Below are positions 2,976-12,626 of a DNA stretch of 64,000 nt, in pieces. Source of the DNA: Streptomyces thermolineatus (GTDB lineage Bacteria > Actinomycetota > Actinomycetes > Streptomycetales > Streptomycetaceae). Made by a program: the position numbers and the translations under genes. Under the pieces are notes generated by a model. That model did no database searches and was not told the DNA's origin. It saw only the letters and a list, made by a program, of their open reading frames with translations. Positions within the stretch are counted from its first letter, which is position 1. Each line of letters opens with the position of its first letter. The stretch lies in NCBI RefSeq assembly GCF_039533165.1, contig NZ_BAAATA010000012.1; one strand, written 5' to 3'.

Positions 2976-3050
2976 GCCCTCCGGGCCCACCCCGCCCCCG
3001 CTCCCGCCCCGCCCCCGCCCGGGCCGGTCGGGGCCGGCGCGGGCGTGCGG

Positions 3051-3569
3051 TCAGCGGCCCGCCGCCGTCTCGATCCAGGTGAGGATCGCCCGGACGGTGT
3101 CCGGCTCGAGGTCGGCGATGGCGCGGATCGCGCTCCCGTCGCCGGGCATCGGCGGGATGCCGGCGGCGATCAGGGCCGAGTGCAGCGCCAGCCGGTGCTG
3201 GTCCTGCGGGGCGAGCAGCGACCTGCGGCGCGCCGCGCCGTCCTTCGCGGCGGGCCGTGCGGACGGGGCCGCGCCGCCGCCGGGCGCGGAGGCGGGCACG
3301 GGGGCGGGCGGAGAGGCGGGGCCGGCGGGGGCCGCGGGGCCGGCCGGAACGGGCGGGGCGAGGTAGTAGCCTCCCCCCGCGGTCTGCGGGGCGGGGCCGG
3401 AGGGCGCCTGCTGCCCGGAGGGCGCTGTGCCGGCGGGCGCCTCCCCGGACGGCGCCGCCCCGGGGGGTACCGTGCCCGCGGGCAGGGTCTCGGGGCAGGT
3501 GCCCAGGAGGGCGTCGAGGTCCCCCAGAGGCACGAAAACGGTGTCGTTCCATGGATGGGCCATGGTCAT
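3051..3569 (-). CDS. hypothetical Pro/Ala-rich protein
   Basis: The ORF starts MTMAHPWNDTVFVPLGDLDAL, followed by a long P/A/G low-complexity tract and a conserved-looking C-terminal segment DQHRLALHSALIAAGIPPMPGDGSAIRAIADLE. No family is recognised. Confidence 0.35.
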   Translation of the reverse strand: MTMAHPWNDTVFVPLGDLDALLGTCPETLPAGTVPPGAAPSGEAPAGTAPSGQQAPSGPAPQTAGGGYYLAPPVPAGPAAPAGPASPPAPVPASAPGGGAAPSARPAAKDGAARRRSLLAPQDQHRLALHSALIAAGIPPMPGDGSAIRAIADLEPDTVRAILTWIETAAGR

Positions 3570-3770
3570 GGCGGCCTCCCGGCAGCTGAGGAAACGACAG
3601 GACCCCTTGTCAACCCCGCAAGGGGCCGACTGGTTCTGCCGGTTCCCAGGATTCACGCGATGGGCGCAACGCGGCGCCGGGACATTCGCACCTGTGCTCG
3701 GAGAGCACCAGCCGGAACGATTCCCCAACGGCGGGCCCCGGGACGGGAGCCGCCCCGGGACGGGGGTGCG

Positions 3771-5051
3771 TCAGGACACGGGGCGCGAGTCGGCCCAGAA
3801 CCCCTCGAACTCCTCGCGGTAGACGTCGAAGAGCCCGTGCTCGCCCCCGCTGTCGCCGTGCACCAGGTCCCGGGACCGCCCCCGGCCGCCGCGCAGCACC
3901 AGCACCGGCGCCTCCATGCCGCGGGCGCGGCGCAGGTAGGACTGGACGACCGCCAGCCCGTCGGAGCCGTCGCCGTCGACGAGGTAGGCGGTGAAGCGGG
4001 GGGTCTCGTCGAAGACCCGGATCTCGAACGCCCCGGTGTCGTGGACCCGGGAGCGGACCCGGCGCATGTGCATGATGTTCATCTCCACCGACCGGCTCAG
4101 CTCCCCCCTGCCGAGGCCGAGTTCGCGCTCGCGGCGGCGCACGGCGCTGCTGGCCGGGTTGAGGAAGAGCAGCCGGACCCTGGCCCCGGACTCGGCCAGC
4201 CGCACCAGGCGCCGGCCGGAGTAGTTCTGCACCAGCAGGTTCAGCCCTATGCCGATGGCGTCCAGGCGGCGCGACCGGCCGAAGAGGTCCTCCACCGGCA
4301 GCTGCCGCTGCAGCCGCACCCGGTCGGGGTGGACCGCCACGACGTCGGCGTAGCGGTCGCCGACCAGCTCCTCGACCGCGTCCACCGCGAGCCGGTCCGA
4401 GGAGGGCGTGCCGCCGGCGGTGCCCAGCAGGCCCAGCAGCCGCTGGGCGGCCCGCTCGGCCTGCGCGAGCACGGTCCCGGACAGGTTGCGGTTGCGCGAG
4501 ACGACGTGCCGGGCGACCTCCAGCTCGTCCAGGGCCAGTTCCAGTTCGCGCCGGTCCTCCAGGAACGGGTCGAAGCAGGGCCAGTGCTGGACGACCAGCT
4601 CGCGCAGCTGCGGCAGGGTGAGGAAGCTGATGACGTTGTCGTCGGCCGGGTCCAGCAGGTACCCCTTGCGCCGGCTGACCTCGCGGACGGCCGCGGCGCG
4701 CTGCACCCACTCCTGCCCCGCGGGCCCGGCCGCCGCGACCACCCACTCCTCGCCGTGCACCGGCTCGTACACCGGCCGCAGCACGGCGGCCACGACGGCC
4801 CGCAGCCGCTGCTCGACCAGGTTCAGCCAGACGTACGCCCGCCCGGCCCGCCGGGCGCGGCTGCGCACCTCTGCCCAGGCGTCGGTGCCCCAGTCCAGTT
4901 CCGCTCCGATCTCCGGGGGCCGGGCGACGGCCACGGCGGCGGCCGCCGGCTCGCCGCTCGGGTAGGGGTCTCCCTGGTCTCCGCCACCGGGGAGCACCAG
5001 TCCTCCCGAGGTCACCACCGCACCGCCCTTTCGACCCCCGTCCACGATCAA
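3771..5051 (-). CDS. hypothetical two-domain protein: N-terminal all-helical Swt1/HEPN-like domain plus C-terminal alpha/beta domain resembling the C-terminal domains of actinobacterial XRE-type regulators (DUF5919-like); start uncertain
   Basis: The N-terminal half reads VEQRLRAVVAAVL...EEWV...NVISFLTLPQLRELVVQHWPCFDPFLEDRRELELALDELEVARHVVSRNRNLS, a pattern reminiscent of Swt1-like HEPN, but no canonical Rx4-6H motif is seen. The C-terminal half reads VRLLFLNPASSAVRRRERELG...EIRVFDETPRFTAYLVDGDG...PVLVLRGG. The true start may be an internal GTG because the first ~50 aa are low complexity. Confidence 0.45.
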   Translation of the reverse strand: MIVDGGRKGGAVVTSGGLVLPGGGDQGDPYPSGEPAAAAVAVARPPEIGAELDWGTDAWAEVRSRARRAGRAYVWLNLVEQRLRAVVAAVLRPVYEPVHGEEWVVAAAGPAGQEWVQRAAAVREVSRRKGYLLDPADDNVISFLTLPQLRELVVQHWPCFDPFLEDRRELELALDELEVARHVVSRNRNLSGTVLAQAERAAQRLLGLLGTAGGTPSSDRLAVDAVEELVGDRYADVVAVHPDRVRLQRQLPVEDLFGRSRRLDAIGIGLNLLVQNYSGRRLVRLAESGARVRLLFLNPASSAVRRRERELGLGRGELSRSVEMNIMHMRRVRSRVHDTGAFEIRVFDETPRFTAYLVDGDGSDGLAVVQSYLRRARGMEAPVLVLRGGRGRSRDLVHGDSGGEHGLFDVYREEFEGFWADSRPVS

Positions 5052-5094: not shown

Positions 5095-6405
5095 CTACTG
5101 TCCTTCCTCCCAGCGGGGTTCGCCGTTGTAGCGCGGATCGTGCAGGTGGTCGGGCGTGATCGGGCTCATGGCGGTGACGTCGCGCGGGGCGATCTGGAAA
5201 CCCTGCCAGTGGACGGGCATCGGCGCCTGGTCCTCGTCGCGGGCGATGTGGTGGAAGCCGACGTTGACCCACACCACGGGCCTGGTCAGCTCCTGCCCGT
5301 CGACGAACCGGTCGACGGTGTCGGCGCACCTCGACTCGAACTCCCGGTTCCCGCTGGCGTACTTCTCGCACCCCTTGTACTGCGTGAAGTAGACGTCGTG
5401 CGAGGTGTACTCGTGCGGCGCGTACTTGTCGGTGTGCTGCTGGACGATCTCCCAGGAGCGGGGGTGGCCGTCCGCGTTCTTCCCGGTGTTGCTGACCACC
5501 CGCCACCAGCGGCTGGGAGCGGCGTCGCCGGCGGTCTCCTTCACCAGCCGCTTCCTGGTGGTCCTCAGCCGGGCCACGCCGTCGGCGCTGCGGCCGTTCG
5601 GCTCGGTGTCCCACTGCTCGACCTTGGCCTTCTCGGAGCCGTCGATGTCGAAGTCCAGCCGCCAGAAGACGTTGTGGTGGTGGCTGGTGGCCTTGTCCCG
5701 GTTGCCCTTGCCGAGCGGCATCCCGGTGGTGTCGCCGGCGTCGTAGTCGGCGGGCGAGAGGTTGCCGGTGGCGCCCTCCTTGGCCGTGACGGTGCCGTCG
5801 TCGGAGAAGTTCCACTGGGTGATGTAGTGGTAGTAGCCGACCGAGTTGACCACGTAGACGACCAGGTCGTCGCCCTGGGCGCTGTCGGTGCGGCCGGGGT
5901 CCTCGCCGATGTCGGAGCTGTTGCCGTGGTAGGCGAACCCGCGCGGCTGCGTGGTCACGCACAGCGCCGGGACGGGCCGCTCGCCCTCGACCCTGATGTT
6001 CTTGACGGTGCCGCCGGGGCAGTCGGCGGGCGCCAGCTTCTCCGGCGTACTGCCGAAGTAGAACGAGGTGACGTCGTTGTACTCCTGGGCGCCGTTGTCG
6101 TAGGGCACGTTGATCTGCGCGAGGCGGGCCGAGGCGAGCACCTTGATCGGCCTGCTCTCGTGCCTGGGCTGGTAGGAGACGTTCTCCAGGACCAGGCCGG
6201 CGGTGGGGCTGTTGTGCCAGCACATCCGCCACGTGGTGCCGTTGGGGAGCTTCTTGGCGATCGCCGATCCGGCGCTGCAGCCGGTGGCGGACGGCGGGGC
6301 GGGCTCCGGGGCGGCCTGCGCCGCGGGCCCGGCGGAGGCGCCGGTGGTCAGGACGAGGAGCGCCGGTGCCGCGAGGAGGGCGAGGCGCCGCACGGATGCG
6401 TGCAT
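5095..6405 (-). CDS. secreted copper amine oxidase-like protein (catalytic domain only)
   Basis: There is a signal peptide MHASVRRLALLAAPALLVLTTGASA. SHHHNVFWRLDFDIDGS matches the HxH...F..RLD...DG copper-site motif of CuAOs. VNVGFHHIARDEDQAPMPV matches the third His ligand motif (G.H..R.ED.P.MP). A TPQ-like region GYYHY deviates from the canonical NYD/EY. The protein is only 436 aa and lacks the N2/N3 domains. Confidence 0.5.
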   Translation of the reverse strand: MHASVRRLALLAAPALLVLTTGASAGPAAQAAPEPAPPSATGCSAGSAIAKKLPNGTTWRMCWHNSPTAGLVLENVSYQPRHESRPIKVLASARLAQINVPYDNGAQEYNDVTSFYFGSTPEKLAPADCPGGTVKNIRVEGERPVPALCVTTQPRGFAYHGNSSDIGEDPGRTDSAQGDDLVVYVVNSVGYYHYITQWNFSDDGTVTAKEGATGNLSPADYDAGDTTGMPLGKGNRDKATSHHHNVFWRLDFDIDGSEKAKVEQWDTEPNGRSADGVARLRTTRKRLVKETAGDAAPSRWWRVVSNTGKNADGHPRSWEIVQQHTDKYAPHEYTSHDVYFTQYKGCEKYASGNREFESRCADTVDRFVDGQELTRPVVWVNVGFHHIARDEDQAPMPVHWQGFQIAPRDVTAMSPITPDHLHDPRYNGEPRWEEGQ

Positions 6406-6561
6406 GGGACGTGACTCCGCTTCTTGGGATCCCCGGTCGGGGAGGAGACGGTGGGGTGCGCACCGGCGCCGGACGCCGCGCTCGTGCGGCGGGGCCGCGC
6501 GCCGCGGCCGTGCGCCGCGGCCGTGCGGCGGGGCGGGGCACCGGGCGTGCCGGGCGGCGCC

Positions 6562-7431
6562 CTACGGCAGGCGCAGGGCGGTGCGGGCGCTCAGGTCGAC
6601 GACCAGGTGGCGCACGTCGATCCACGGCCCGTCCGCCACCCGGGTGAACAGGCGTACGCACCGGTGCTCGCCGCACTTCGCGGCCGGCCCGGTCACGCCC
6701 TCGGGCGCGCGGTAGGTCAGGCCGCGGGTGTCCAGCTGGGCGGCCCGGGCGAGTGTCCGGCCGGTGGCGGCCCGGTAGTCCTCCTTCAGCCCCGCGCCGA
6801 GCGGGCTGTCCAGCAGGACGCCGACGGCCTCGGCCGCCTCGGCCCGCGAGGGCGGCGGCTGGGCGTTCCCGTTCCTCTCCGAGGCGACGACCTCGTGCTC
6901 CGTCAGGTCGACGGTCTTCTTCACCAGCGTGTCGTCGGAGTAGTCGTAGAAGTAGACCTCGGCGCGGCGGTGGCCGTCCCCTCCGGTGCCCCCGTCCCCG
7001 GAGGGCCGGGCGAGGGCGGTGCTGAGGTACTGGGCGTCCCCGTCCTTCCCGCGGACGTCCTCGGCGGCCGTGCGCAGTCCCCGGTCGCGCGCCAGGGCCA
7101 GGTCCCTGGCCGCCTCGATCTCGTCCGGGGTGAGGGCGTCGCGCCCGGTCCCGGTCTCCGCGGGCGGGGCGGGCTCCTCCACCACGCCGGGCGCGTCGTC
7201 CGCTCGGGACGCGCCGTCCGCACCGGGCGCGCCGTCCGCGGACGCCGCCCGCCCGGGCCCGTCCGCCCGTCCCGGCCGGCCGGTGCTCGCCGCGCCCGCC
7301 GTCCCGTCCTGTCCCGCCGCGTTCAGCGGCACGGTCACCGCCAGCATCGCGGCGGTGCAGGTGACCGCCAGTCCCGCCCCGATCGCCGCGCGCCGCAGCA
7401 CCGTGCGGCGGCGTTCCCCCCGTGGTTCCAC
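6562..7431 (-). CDS. hypothetical secreted protein (Tat-like signal)
   Basis: From the GTG at 7431 the protein begins VEPRGERRRTVLRRAAIGAGLAVTCTAAMLA. A Gly/Ala-rich linker follows. The C-terminal domain reads RAEVYFYDYSDDTLVKKTVDLTEHEVV...KCGEHRCVRLF. No family is recognised. It lies directly upstream of the amine oxidase gene on the same strand. Confidence 0.4.
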   Translation of the reverse strand: MEPRGERRRTVLRRAAIGAGLAVTCTAAMLAVTVPLNAAGQDGTAGAASTGRPGRADGPGRAASADGAPGADGASRADDAPGVVEEPAPPAETGTGRDALTPDEIEAARDLALARDRGLRTAAEDVRGKDGDAQYLSTALARPSGDGGTGGDGHRRAEVYFYDYSDDTLVKKTVDLTEHEVVASERNGNAQPPPSRAEAAEAVGVLLDSPLGAGLKEDYRAATGRTLARAAQLDTRGLTYRAPEGVTGPAAKCGEHRCVRLFTRVADGPWIDVRHLVVDLSARTALRLP

Positions 7432-7713
7432 TGCTTCCCCCGTGTCCGTCGTACGTCCGGCAGGGCCGGCCCTCTCCGGGCCCGTCGGACCCTGCCGTCC
7501 CTGGGGACGCAGCCGGGCCCGGGCGGGTTGCACGGGGCGGGTGGGCCGTGCGGGTCGCGTGGGGCACGAGGGGGGCTCACGGGGGCGCGCGGCGCGACAC
7601 CGAGGACGGAAGATGGGCGAAAAGCGCACGGATCGCCCCGGACTGGGTGAGGATTTTCCCGGAACCGGTGGCCGACAGGAGCACCGGCACCGGATGACGG
7701 GAAGAGACACAGC

Positions 7714-9852
<2,139 letters not shown>

Positions 9853-10070: not shown

Positions 10071-12626
10071 ATGACGCCGACGCCCGAGCAGCACCGGCCC
10101 GAACAGCACCGGCCCGAACCGGCCCCCGCCGGAACGGCCCCGGCGGCCCCGGCGGTGCCCACCGCGACGTACCGGCTGCAGCTCCAGCCGGACTTCCCCC
10201 TGTCCGCGGCCGAGGCCGCCGTCCCCCGTCTGGCCGCACTGGGCGTCTCGCACCTGCACCTGTCCCCGGTGCTCCGGGCCTGTCCCGGCTCCACCCACGG
10301 CTACGACGTGGTCGACCACACCCGGATCGGCGAGGAGATCGGCGGCGAGGACGCCCTGCGCTCCCTGGCCCGCACCGCCCGCGCGCACGGCATGGGGCTG
10401 GTCGTGGACGTCGTGCCCAACCACATGGCCGTCCCCGTCCCCGAGCACCTGAGCGAACCGCTGTGGGAGGTGCTGCGCGACGGCCCCGGGTCCCGCTTCG
10501 CCGACTGGTTCGACATCGACTGGGCGGCGCAGGAGGGCCGGCTGCTGCTGCCCGTCCTCGGCGGCCGGCTGGGTCCCGAGCTCGGCGCCCTGGAGACCGG
10601 CACCGCCACCGTCCGGGGCCGGGAGGAGAGGGTGCTGCGCTACCACGACCACGTCTTCCCGCTGCGGCCCGGCACCGAGGACCTGCCCCTGCCCGGGCTG
10701 CTGGAGCACCAGTGGTACCGCCTGGCCTGGTGGCGGCTGGCCCGCACCGAGCTCAACCACCGCCGCTTCTTCACCATCTCCGACCTCATCGGGGTGCGCG
10801 TGGAGGACGAGGCGGTCTTCGCCGCCACCCACGGCAAGCTCCTGGAACTCGTCCGCGACGGGGTCGTGGACGGCCTGCGCGTGGACCACCCCGACGGCCT
10901 CGCCGACCCCCGCGGCTACCTGCGCCGCCTGCACGCGGCCACCGGCGGGCGGTGGACCGTGGTGGAGAAGATCCTCGGCCCCGGCGAACCCCTGCCCGCA
11001 GACTGGCCCTGCGCGGGCACCACCGGCTACGACGCGCTCAAGCACGTCGACGGCCTGTTCGTCGACCCGGCGGGCGCCGCCCGCCTGGCCGAGGTGTGGA
11101 CCGACTTCGCCCGCCTCCCCGCCACCCTGGGCGGCAACTGGGCGGCCACCGTCGCCCGCGCCACCGAGGAGGTCGTCACCGAGGACCTGGCGACCGAGGT
11201 CGCCCGCCTGGTCCGCGCCGCCGACCGCGTCTGCTCGAAGGATCCGCAGCTGGCGGACCACGCCCCGTGGGCGCTGCGCACCGCCGTGCGGGGGCTGCTG
11301 GCGGGCATCCCCGTCTACCGCCCCTACGTCGTCCCCGGCGAGCCCGCCCCCGAACGCGACGCCGCCCTGCTGGAGGCCGCCGCCGGGCCCGCCCGCGCGG
11401 CCTTCGCCGTCCCCGAGGAGGCGCACGCGGTCGACGTCGTGCGCGACCTGGCGCTCGGGCGGCTCGGCCGCGGCCCCGACCACGACGACTTCGCCGTCCG
11501 CTTCGCCCAGGTCTCCTCCGCGCTGCGCGCCAAGGCGGTCGAGGACACCGCCTTCTACCGCTGGCACCCGCTGCTGGGCGTGAACGAGGTCGGCGGCGAC
11601 CCGGCGCGCCCCGGCACCTCCCCGGAGGACTTCCACGCCTTCGCCGCCCGCATCCAGCGCGACTGGCCGGCCACCGCCACGGTGCTGTCCACCCACGACA
11701 CCAAGCGCAGCGCGGACGTGCGCGCCCGGCTGGCCGTGCTGTCCGAGGTGCCCGAACTGTGGCGCGAGTGGCTGGAGAAGGAGTCCGCGGCCGACGGGCG
11801 CGGCAGGCCCGCCGCCCCGGACCGCCAGGTGGAGTACCTGGTGCGGCAGACCGCGATCGGCCTGGGGCACTGCGACGCGGAACGGCTGGTGCCCGCCATG
11901 CTGAAGTCGGTGCGCGAGGCCCGCCTGCGCACCGGCTGGACCACCGCGGACCCCGACTACGAGGCCGCCGTGGAGGCGTTCGTCCGCGGCCTGTGCGAGG
12001 ACGAGGAACAGGTGGCCGCCCTGGCCTCGTTCACCGCCGTCCTGGAACCGTACGCGCACGCCAACTCCCTCGGCGCCGCCCTGGTCCACCTGACGATGCC
12101 CGGCGTCCCCGACCTCTACCAGGGCTCCGAGCGGGAGCTGCTCACCCTCGTGGACCCGGACAACCGACGCCCGGTGGACTTCCCCCGTCCCTTCGACGCC
12201 GACGGGTTCGAACGCTCCTTGTCCCTGGGCCGGGGGCCCACCGGGAACCTGTCCGACCGCAAGCTCCGGCTGACCGCCACCGCCCTGCGGCTGCGCCGAG
12301 AGCACCCCGAGTGGTTCGGCGCCGGAGGCGGCTACGCCCCGCTGCACGCCCGCGGCCCGGCCGCCGAGCACCTGCTCGCCTTCCTCCGCGGCGGCGGGGA
12401 CGGCGAGGGCGGGACGGACGGCGGGGCCGGCGGGGCGATCACCGCCGTCGTCCGGCTCTCCCGCGACCTCGCGCAGTCCGGCGGCTGGCACGACACCGTC
12501 CTGGACCTGCCCAAGGGCCCCTGGACCGACCTGATCACCGGCGCCGTCCACCCCGCCGGCCCCAACCGCGCCTCGGCCCTCTTCGCCGGCGGCCCCGCCG
12601 TCCTCCTCGTGCCCACACCCCGCTGA
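10071..12626 (+). CDS. treY: malto-oligosyltrehalose synthase TreY
   Basis: TYRLQLQPDFPLSAAEAAVPRLAALGVSHLHLSPV and VVDVVPNHMAV are present. The length is 851 aa. The gene sits immediately downstream of glgX as in the treX-treY-treZ arrangement. Confidence 0.9.
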   Translation: MTPTPEQHRPEQHRPEPAPAGTAPAAPAVPTATYRLQLQPDFPLSAAEAAVPRLAALGVSHLHLSPVLRACPGSTHGYDVVDHTRIGEEIGGEDALRSLARTARAHGMGLVVDVVPNHMAVPVPEHLSEPLWEVLRDGPGSRFADWFDIDWAAQEGRLLLPVLGGRLGPELGALETGTATVRGREERVLRYHDHVFPLRPGTEDLPLPGLLEHQWYRLAWWRLARTELNHRRFFTISDLIGVRVEDEAVFAATHGKLLELVRDGVVDGLRVDHPDGLADPRGYLRRLHAATGGRWTVVEKILGPGEPLPADWPCAGTTGYDALKHVDGLFVDPAGAARLAEVWTDFARLPATLGGNWAATVARATEEVVTEDLATEVARLVRAADRVCSKDPQLADHAPWALRTAVRGLLAGIPVYRPYVVPGEPAPERDAALLEAAAGPARAAFAVPEEAHAVDVVRDLALGRLGRGPDHDDFAVRFAQVSSALRAKAVEDTAFYRWHPLLGVNEVGGDPARPGTSPEDFHAFAARIQRDWPATATVLSTHDTKRSADVRARLAVLSEVPELWREWLEKESAADGRGRPAAPDRQVEYLVRQTAIGLGHCDAERLVPAMLKSVREARLRTGWTTADPDYEAAVEAFVRGLCEDEEQVAALASFTAVLEPYAHANSLGAALVHLTMPGVPDLYQGSERELLTLVDPDNRRPVDFPRPFDADGFERSLSLGRGPTGNLSDRKLRLTATALRLRREHPEWFGAGGGYAPLHARGPAAEHLLAFLRGGGDGEGGTDGGAGGAITAVVRLSRDLAQSGGWHDTVLDLPKGPWTDLITGAVHPAGPNRASALFAGGPAVLLVPTPR

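Follow-up and report, generated by a model that had tools for sequence, protein, structure and literature searches.

A SAV2148-family protein of Streptomyces thermolineatus joins a HEPN domain with a degenerate catalytic motif to a PLD-fold DUF5919 domain in a conserved Streptomycetaceae core gene

The 64-kb stretch of the Streptomyces thermolineatus genome analyzed here (the window) contains, on the minus strand, an open reading frame (ORF) at 3771..5051 that counts 426 codons from a TTG at 5051. Its GC1/GC2/GC3 values (0.80/0.49/0.96) are as expected for a genuine actinobacterial gene of high GC content and differ from those of the ORFs that overlap it in other frames, and the peptide strings that the original prediction cited for this gene all occur in its translation. 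Translation probably starts not at TTG 5051 but at GTG 5018 or GTG 5015, 11 to 12 codons inside the ORF, because the N termini of homologues (MSSGGLELP, MTSGGLVLP, or MVTSGG) and a Shine-Dalgarno-like GAAAGGG, ~7 to 10 nt upstream, fit there; counted from GTG 5018, the coding sequence is 3771..5018 (minus strand, stop codon at 3771-3773) and specifies 415 aa. Residue numbers given below are those of the longer ORF. A perfect 12-bp G+C-rich hairpin, seen in the centroid fold at 3735..3761 (minus strand), 10 nt past the stop codon, is a possible terminator lacking a U tract, with a z-score (−0.75) that does not reach significance against so GC-rich a background; scans of the locus for sigma-70 promoters, consensus terminators, and Rfam families are empty.

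The N-terminal part of the protein is a HEPN domain of the SAV2148/Swt1-like type (aa 38-252; 4296..4940, minus strand), which is all-helical in the structural model, in keeping with the alpha-helical bundle of the HEPN superfamily, and which matches PF18725 (HEPN_SAV2148) over profile positions 2-216 of 216 with 399.8 bits (cutoff 26.4; E = 3.1e-120). It is followed by DUF5919 (PF19319; aa 263-426, bases 3774-4265), matched over profile positions 1-161 of 161 with 285 bits (cutoff 23.5; E = 2e-85), and together with ~40 conserved residues upstream, which supply the first strand and helix, this segment forms a single phospholipase D (PLD)-fold domain at the C terminus (3774..4379, minus strand). 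The original prediction of a Swt1-type HEPN domain at the N terminus and a DUF5919-like domain at the C terminus is thus upheld, as is the absence of a helix-turn-helix (HTH), none being found in the Pfam scan. No NCBIfam model and no PDB sequence matches the protein.

The gene is an orthologue of S. avermitilis SAV_2148, and its product is an ordinary, already known member of a catalogued family whose members NCBI names "SAV2148 family HEPN domain-containing protein"; it is 99% identical to GQS52_05675 of Streptomyces sp. SCUT-3. The family was described in 2013 as a Swt1-like HEPN fused to "phospholipase D nuclease, inactive" (Anantharaman et al. 2013, Biol Direct 8:15; PMC3710099, Table 1), and with a Pfam and NCBI name and members in at least 565 species genomes the arrangement is not the unusual standalone architecture it was first taken for. 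That survey places the SAV2148 family in the Swt1-like group, but the Swt1 profile itself (PF18731, HEPN_Swt1) has no match to the window protein even at an E value of ≤10, and five of the distant relatives scanned match it at E = 1e-5 to 1.5e-4 with 22.5 to 25.9 bits, below the cutoff of 27.5. Apart from incidental table entries, the 2013 survey is all that a literature search on SAV2148, DUF5919, and SCO6076-6086 brought up, with no experiment on a family member. In S. coelicolor, SCO6083 is probably the orthologue, judging from the annotations of SCO6078 ("alpha amylase"), SCO6084 ("DNA polymerase III epsilon"), and SCO6086 ("transporter").

Alignment with distant relatives locates a degenerate HEPN active-site motif at R181-H-V-V-S-R186-N-R188 (4488..4511, minus strand), in which Arg186 occupies the position of the catalytic His. 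The seven distant full-length relatives aligned, which belong to a rare group at 21 to 32% identity, have R-N-x-x-x-H-x-R with the R, N, H, and R invariant, whereas the window protein lacks the canonical Rx4-6H motif of active HEPN RNases, exactly as had been noted from its sequence. The same substitution is present in all 84 Streptomycetaceae loci compared, with RNVVSRNR in 75, RHVVSRNR in 8, and RHIVARNR in 1, and the SAV2148 clade retains both arginines of the RNase motif. In the eight RHVVSRNR members, among them the window protein, position +1 of the motif is a His. With its His lost, the HEPN domain of the clade appears from its sequence to be catalytically dead, although loss of the His is not strict proof that all RNase activity is gone.

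In the AlphaFold model of the window protein (pLDDT 83.9), DUF5919 has the PLD alpha/beta fold, and its top Foldseek matches all belong to the PLD superfamily; the nearest are the ligand-binding domains of TrmB and TrmBL2, the FAM83 pseudo-PLD domain, and Nuc-type nucleases, so that the predicted domain resembles the C-terminal effector-binding domain of TrmB. The assignment rests on the predicted structure, since none of 22 DUF5919 domains matched a PLDc or TrmB family of Pfam at E ≤ 10; a DUF5919 profile likewise had no match among PDB sequences. From its spacing and its position at the start of model strand 342-347, R352-F-T354-A-Y-L-V-D359 (3975..3998, minus strand) is the likely counterpart of the catalytic HxKxxxxD motif of the PLD superfamily: the spacing is the same, with Arg in place of the His and Thr in place of the Lys. 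RFTAYLVD is present in 79 of the 84 Streptomycetaceae members, and other DUF5919 proteins have Asn at the Lys position (R-x-N-x-x-x-x-D). Conservation within DUF5919 is strongest at Arg, Asn, Gln, Tyr, and Glu residues. The domain occurs behind either a HEPN or an HTH domain, the latter (HTH_31) in ~290-aa regulators such as P0141.

SAV2148-family proteins are encoded in at least 565 species-representative genomes with ~78% identity, and those in the best 80 of these are 73 to 82% identical to the window protein; mean column identity among 18 aligned members is 80%. Over the 80 loci the median identity is 78% for the window protein, compared with 83% for GlgX and 59% for TreY. Divergent from the family gene are a glgX-like isoamylase gene (7714-9852, plus strand) and a treY-like gene (10071-12626, plus strand), both identified by Pfam, and tblastn finds GlgX at all 80 related loci and TreY at 78. 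The glgX-treY order is the same at three further clade loci (L083, L085, and L172, the last with a family protein 66% identical), and the fixed synteny also takes in an APH gene. The family gene is therefore a vertically inherited core gene of the Streptomycetaceae and not one of a mobile island.

The intervening genes are more variable, and in about half of the genomes, the window included, two unrelated genes lie between the family gene and glgX. A copper amine oxidase gene (5095..6405, minus strand; PF01179, E = 2.5e-38) with a signal-peptide-like N terminus ends 76 nt before the family-gene start, but it is present at only 42 of the 80 related loci and is context, not part of a family module; where this insert is absent, the intergenic gap to glgX is only ~300 nt (L083). 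The ORF at 6562..7935 is overextended, its residues 1-74 being antisense to the 5′ end of glgX, and its real C-terminal part is matched at only ~40 of the 80 loci (the L085 gene is ~243 aa). On the other side of the family gene is a P/A-rich ORF of ~173 aa (3051..3572, minus strand), which has no Pfam match and no homologue among the related loci searched; this ORF and the secreted amine oxidase are the neighbors originally described.

The P/A-rich ORF lies where the relatives have a DEDDh exonuclease. An RNase_T-family gene is located downstream on the same strand at all 80 loci, starting within ~500 nt of the stop codon at 78 of them, and the exonuclease is also present at L083, where its sequence contains the DEDDh motifs DLETTG, YNAAFD, and HDASADA, and at L085. 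It matches NF005927 ("DNA polymerase III epsilon-like") above the cutoff and is probably SCO6084 in S. coelicolor; the gaps between the two genes are 70 to 230 nt. No DEDDh exonuclease gene is present in the window, where homology to L085 stops at 3771 and restarts at 2979; at L172 unrelated genes intervene and the exonuclease gene lies 5 kb off, and at L173 it is absent. Apart from this replacement, the window protein is the same as other SAV_2148 family members, sharing both full-length profiles, the ~410- to 425-aa length, the degenerate motif, and the glgX-treY synteny, and it is 77 to 85% identical to the members listed from Streptomyces, Actinacidiphila, and Wenjunlia.

Outside the Streptomyces clade, DUF5919 genes almost always have a different partner. 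Among 80 metagenomic HTH-DUF5919 loci, found with an HTH-DUF5919 alignment, a PF00459 (inositol-monophosphatase-family; IMPase) gene follows on the same strand at 70, and nine of the ten exceptions are contigs ending at the DUF5919 gene. A same-strand PF00459 gene is also next at the P0141 locus (HTH-DUF5919) and at four of five distant HEPN-DUF5919 loci. All five IMPase partners checked keep the DPxDGT motif and the acidic Glu-Glu/Glu motif, and WDxxxG is evident in four by eye and in three with a narrower pattern. There is no IMPase-like ORF anywhere in the 64-kb window and no annotated IMPase adjoining the family gene at L083, L085, or L172, and what holds for DUF5919 at large may therefore not apply to Streptomyces.

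Because both domains lack their catalytic residues, a sensor or regulator is more likely than a toxin, and the reading that we favor, with somewhat better than even confidence, is that the family protein is a ligand-sensing, noncatalytic regulator built from two inactivated enzyme-derived domains. DUF5919 would bind a phosphorylated small molecule in its remodeled, Arg-rich former active site, with a sugar phosphate, an inositol phosphate, or a nucleotide such as pAp as candidate ligands, and, as single-domain PLD nucleases and HEPN dimers do by analogy, it would probably also dimerize the protein. The dead HEPN domain would bind to an RNA or protein partner and leave it uncut, such that the output would be posttranscriptional or at the protein level. 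The family appears to derive from a wider two-gene module that pairs a DUF5919 protein, with an HTH or an active HEPN domain as output, with a downstream IMPase-family phosphatase, whose role would be to control how much ligand is present.

Two alternatives retain catalysis, and both are very improbable. HEPN domains are typically defense RNases (PMC3710099), and the toxin or abortive-infection role implied by the original prediction would make the protein an active HEPN RNase of an abortive-infection, toxin-antitoxin, or other defense system; in keeping with this, its aa 60-191 match the PADLOC candidate PDC-M34B (E = 4e-11), and some distant relatives have an intact RNxxxH, one of which (L088) adjoins LmuB-like and HNH genes. 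However, the PADLOC match covers the HEPN part only, not the full length of PDC-M34B, and there is no PDC-M34A among the scanned neighbor proteins of related loci. Arg replaces the catalytic His in each of the 84 clade members, and the gene is a ~78% conserved core gene, syntenic in at least 565 species, whereas defense genes are patchy and fast evolving. It is flanked by metabolic genes (glgX/treY, amine oxidase, and APH), with neither an island context nor an antitoxin-like, small, or otherwise cognate partner gene among its neighbors, and the active-toxin reading was rejected on the lost His, the core synteny, and the metabolic flanks. An equally slim chance attaches to an active PLD-type nuclease or phosphodiesterase that uses the dead HEPN as a nucleic-acid-binding module; this was rejected because the catalytic pair is replaced, every aligned DUF5919 sequence having Arg for the His of HxK and Thr/Asn for the Lys, and the lack of a PLDc Pfam match even at E = 10 and the noncatalytic TrmB, TrmBL2, and FAM83 domains among the top structural neighbors also speak against it.

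The remaining alternatives turn on the neighboring genes. The protein could respond to carbohydrates and regulate the divergent glycogen-to-trehalose genes glgX-treY-treZ; DUF5919 would then recognize a sugar, free or phosphorylated, much as TrmB does maltose and trehalose, and the dead HEPN would act as in MtlR. The divergent arrangement with glgX-treY at all 80 loci and at L083, L085, and L172, and the short gap to glgX where the amine-oxidase insert is absent, fit this proposal, but synteny limited to one bacterial family could reflect inheritance alone and is weak evidence of functional linkage; two unrelated genes lie between it and glgX in about half of the genomes, the usual partner of DUF5919 in the wider family is an IMPase gene rather than a glycogen gene, and the protein has no DNA-binding domain, and we regard it as unlikely. 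Less likely still is that the protein recruits RNA or another substrate to the downstream DEDDh 3′-5′ exonuclease. Although the pairing is consistent across the 80 loci, L083, and L085, and the partner has recognizable DEDDh motifs and an above-cutoff NF005927 match, neighboring positions in a single genus may reflect synteny and nothing more, the gaps between the genes suggest no translational coupling, and at L172 the two genes are well separated. An obligate exonuclease partnership was rejected, as the pair is broken in this window by replacement of the exonuclease gene and L173 has no exonuclease.

The proposed noncatalytic regulator has partial counterparts among known systems. Relative to the Swt1/Abi2-type HEPN RNases (AbiF/AbiD, Swt1-like, and PDC-M34B), it has Arg for the catalytic His, is fused to DUF5919, and is encoded by a core chromosomal rather than a defense-island gene. 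TrmB and TrmBL2, which combine an HTH with a sugar-binding effector domain, have no detectable sequence similarity to it and differ in being archaeal rather than bacterial (Actinobacteria) and in having a winged-helix rather than a HEPN output. The pseudo-PLD domains of FAM83 (DUF1669) and MITD1 are eukaryotic, with unrelated partners and replacement residues other than those of DUF5919, and MtlR/YggD, a HEPN-fold regulator of the mannitol operon, is a single-domain gammaproteobacterial protein without DUF5919. A functional analogy may be drawn with Csm6/Csx1 (CARF-HEPN) and Csa3 (CARF-HTH), in which, as appears to be the case for DUF5919, one type of sensor is coupled to either a HEPN or an HTH output; an enzyme removes the signal in CARF systems, and the adjacent IMPase-family phosphatase could be the DUF5919 counterpart. 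However, the CARF sensor is Rossmann-like rather than PLD-like, DUF5919 has no CRISPR or cyclase context, and the Streptomyces clade differs further in its dead HEPN and, in the window and at L083, L085, and L172, in the lack of an IMPase partner.

A broader and more tentative proposal, which we consider possible but hold with clearly less confidence than the regulator reading itself, is that DUF5919 is an unrecognized, widespread PLD/TrmB-like sensor of a signal in the form of a phosphorylated small molecule, whose level a cotranscribed IMPase-family phosphatase would set. The output would be transcription in HTH-DUF5919 proteins and RNA cleavage in active HEPN-DUF5919 proteins, and a dead copy would have been domesticated in the Streptomycetaceae, possibly as a core regulator of RNA turnover or of glycogen-trehalose metabolism. 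If true, this would be a signal-gated RNase/regulator system like the CARF systems and unrelated to CRISPR. For Streptomyces, the interest that remains is in a core gene of ~80% identity made of two inactivated nuclease-type domains. For the wider family, DUF5919 may be a ligand sensor that, at hundreds of actinobacterial loci, is closely tied to an IMPase-family phosphatase; if this holds, the DUF would gain a function, a class of XRE-type regulators would be accounted for, and a new small-molecule-controlled HEPN RNase would be indicated.

The minus-strand ORF at 3771..5051 codes for a member of the SAV2148 family, an assignment that is close to certain, with full-length Pfam matches to PF18725 ('SAV2148-like HEPN'; ORF aa 38-252, E=3.1e-120, 399.8 bits against a cut-off of 26.4) and PF19319 ('DUF5919'; ORF aa 263-426, E=2e-85, 285 bits against a cut-off of 23.5). 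The original prediction had correctly recognised both domains and the Swt1-type character of the HEPN half, and the Pfam search likewise agrees with it in finding no HTH. The HEPN-DUF5919 fusion is not the unusual architecture that it proposed, being already catalogued in a family that has been described and named. NCBIfam has no model for the protein, and PADLOC gives only a partial, HEPN-level match to candidate PDC-M34B (aa 60-191, E=4e-11). A protein database search returned 942 relatives at E<=1e-5, the closest from Streptomyces sp. SCUT-3 (99% identity); the best 120 are 77-100% identical, come from Streptomyces, Actinacidiphila, and Wenjunlia, and are mostly named 'SAV2148 family HEPN domain-containing protein' by NCBI. 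In the searched literature, no paper beyond a 2013 HEPN survey mentions SAV2148 or DUF5919.

The ORF is real and has a codon-position GC of 0.80/0.49/0.96, the signature of a true gene in an actinobacterial genome of 70-78% G+C; ORFs overlapping it in other frames lack this signature, and its translation contains all of the peptide strings originally quoted. The true start is most likely GTG 5018 or 5015 (414-415 aa) and not TTG 5051, because homologue N-termini in the family alignment read MSSGGLELP, MTSGGLVLP, or MVTSGG and a GAAAGGG site lies upstream of GTG 5018. An N-terminal tail motif, S-S/T-G-G-L-x-L-P-x-G (window ~4985-5015, minus strand; residues 2-12 of the 415-aa form), is kept across the genus, is spelled SSGGLELPP in 45 loci, and might act as a degron or in short linear interactions; the tail around it is otherwise disordered in the structural model (pLDDT <50). 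Ten nucleotides past the stop codon is a perfect 12-bp, G+C-rich hairpin (3735-3761, minus strand) arising from a direct duplication of CCCGTCCCGGGGC, which is a possible U-tract-less terminator and is not significant against shuffles (z = -0.75).

Clustering the whole family at 50% yields only 193 representatives at E<=1e-3, among which are distant full-length relatives (proteins P0132, P0134, P0137, P0168, P0230, P0140, and P0250; 21-32% identity, 348-400 aa). All six that were scanned against Pfam have both domains, and five have sub-threshold matches to PF18731 Swt1 (E ~1e-5 to 1e-4). In the alignment these relatives carry the canonical R-N-x-x-x-H-x-R motif with R, N, H, and R invariant, whereas the Streptomycetaceae clade has Arg at the His position: RNVVSRNR in 75 loci, RHVVSRNR in 8 (including the window), and RHIVARNR in one. 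Because the canonical motif is present in distant relatives and the clade still has the Arg residues on either side and further HEPN landmarks (E..LR, W, FL, W..F), the alignment indicates that the clade's ancestor was an active Swt1/Abi2-type RNase and that the catalytic His was lost while strong purifying selection on the protein continued. The 2013 survey terms such loss 'inactive' (PMC3710099).

In an AlphaFold2 model built from a 50-sequence alignment (mean pLDDT 83.9), residues 45-202 (415-aa numbering) form a helical N-domain and residues 214-415 an alpha/beta C-domain. The top 28 Foldseek matches of the C-domain in the PDB all belong to the PLD superfamily, with SauUSI, FAM83, vaccinia F13, BfiI, phosphatidylserine synthase, and PLD among them; no sequence-level link of DUF5919 to PLDc families or PDB chains was found. 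The conserved C-domain starts ~40 residues ahead of the Pfam DUF5919 boundary, and that stretch contains an invariant Arg. The segment R-F-T-A-Y-L-V-D, at the start of model strand 342-347, has the HxKxxxxD spacing with His replaced by Arg and Lys by Thr (Asn in other DUF5919 proteins), and from spacing and secondary structure we infer that the two are equivalent. Each half of the protein has an enzyme fold but not the catalytic residues, and in the model the C-domain is most like ligand- or partner-binding PLD-fold domains (TrmB, FAM83).

Scanning one genome per species shows relatives encoded in at least 565 species genomes. At the best 80 loci (73-82% identity; median 78%), the neighbours are a GlgX-like isoamylase (80/80, median identity 83%; window 7714-9852, plus strand), a TreY-like gene (78/80, 59%; 10071-12626, plus strand), an APH-family kinase (76/80, 74%), and a copper amine oxidase (42/80, 55%). 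Gene order is the same in annotated loci L083 and L085 and in L172 (relative 66% identical). The SAV2148-type gene is a vertically inherited core gene rather than an island gene, with conservation similar to that of GlgX. Only about half of the related genomes have the insert that separates glgX from the SAV2148-type gene here (5095-7300, minus strand), which consists of the copper amine oxidase gene, whose product has an N-terminus resembling a signal peptide, and a ~243-aa ORF upstream of it. The mechanically called ORF 6562..7935 (457 aa) runs too far, as its first 74 codons are antisense to the 5' end of glgX. In S. coelicolor, SCO6083 is probably the orthologue, judging from gene order: published tables give 'alpha amylase' for SCO6078, 'DNA polymerase III subunit epsilon' for SCO6084, and 'transport system membrane protein' for SCO6086; the tag SCO6083 itself was not found in the searched literature.

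A same-strand DEDDh exonuclease gene (PF00929 RNase_T; also NF005927 'DNA polymerase III epsilon' subfamily, scoring 306.8 bits where the cut-off is 186) lies downstream in 80/80 clade loci, starting within ~500 nt in 78, and is missing from this position in the window. Homology to the closest syntenic locus, L085, breaks off exactly at 3771, the SAV2148-type stop codon, and picks up again at 2979, where the APH gene stops, and the intervening 791 bp (2980-3770) carry an unrelated P/A-rich ORF (3051..3572, minus strand, ~173 aa, MTMAHPWNDTVFVPLGDLD..., G+C up to 84%) that matches no Pfam family and lacks a homologue in the other fetched loci searched. The whole 64-kb window has no RNase_T, inositol-monophosphatase family (IMPase), or second DUF5919 ORF. 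L172 has the exonuclease gene at a distance of 5 kb and L173 lacks it, and its pairing with the SAV2148-type gene may therefore be synteny and not an obligate partnership.

Other DUF5919 proteins are mostly HTH_31-DUF5919 (~290 aa). Almost always, the next gene on the same strand after such a DUF5919 gene, in many cases overlapping it, is a PF00459 IMPase gene. This holds for four of five distant HEPN-DUF5919 loci (L081, L082, L088, and L091; not L086), for the P0141 locus, and for 70/80 metagenomic HTH-DUF5919 loci, where nine of the ten remaining contigs end at the gene and L170 alone truly lacks PF00459. No IMPase partner occurs in the three annotated Streptomyces clade loci (L083, L085, L172). 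The partner phosphatases examined have DPxDGT (5/5) and the WDxxxG metal-binding motif (4/5), and fall under every NCBIfam equivalog cut-off, with HisN, SuhB, and CysQ nearest. A sensor-like domain with an HTH or RNase output and a phosphatase is like CARF-HTH and CARF-HEPN systems with their signal-degrading enzymes, by analogy and not by membership. DUF5919 locus contexts are mixed. At L088:2244-5038 an active-type HEPN-DUF5919 and IMPase pair directly follows LmuB-like ATPase and HNH nuclease genes, in what looks like a defence island, and an EamA-family transporter gene flanks HEPN-DUF5919 loci L082 and L091. Among the metagenomic loci (L092-L171), twelve have an FtsK/SpoIIIE-like ORF and six a GntR-type ORF (e.g., L169:969-1802 and L145:517-1275); integrative conjugative elements of actinomycetes typically carry such genes, and some HTH-DUF5919 modules may thus be carried on mobile elements.

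The best-supported functional class is a non-toxic, non-catalytic, ligand-sensing regulator, which we favour by a modest degree. In this reading the former PLD site of DUF5919, remodelled and Arg-rich, would serve to bind a phosphorylated small molecule; the domain would probably also make the protein a dimer, and the dead HEPN domain would attach to RNA or a partner but not cleave it. A more specific role as a sugar-responsive regulator of glgX-treYZ has TrmB and MtlR as precedents, along with the divergent synteny, and is unlikely. Action as a specificity factor of that DEDDh exonuclease would suit its place in all 80 clade loci, and is rather less probable, with the gene missing here and in L173. 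An active toxin or defence RNase, as the motif of the distant relatives would allow, and an active PLD nuclease are both highly improbable for a protein with Arg at the HEPN His position and Arg and Thr in the PLD-like segment. The DUF5919-IMPase linkage and TrmB-like fold, of which no discussion was found in the searchable literature, make the family a reasonable target for ligand screens.
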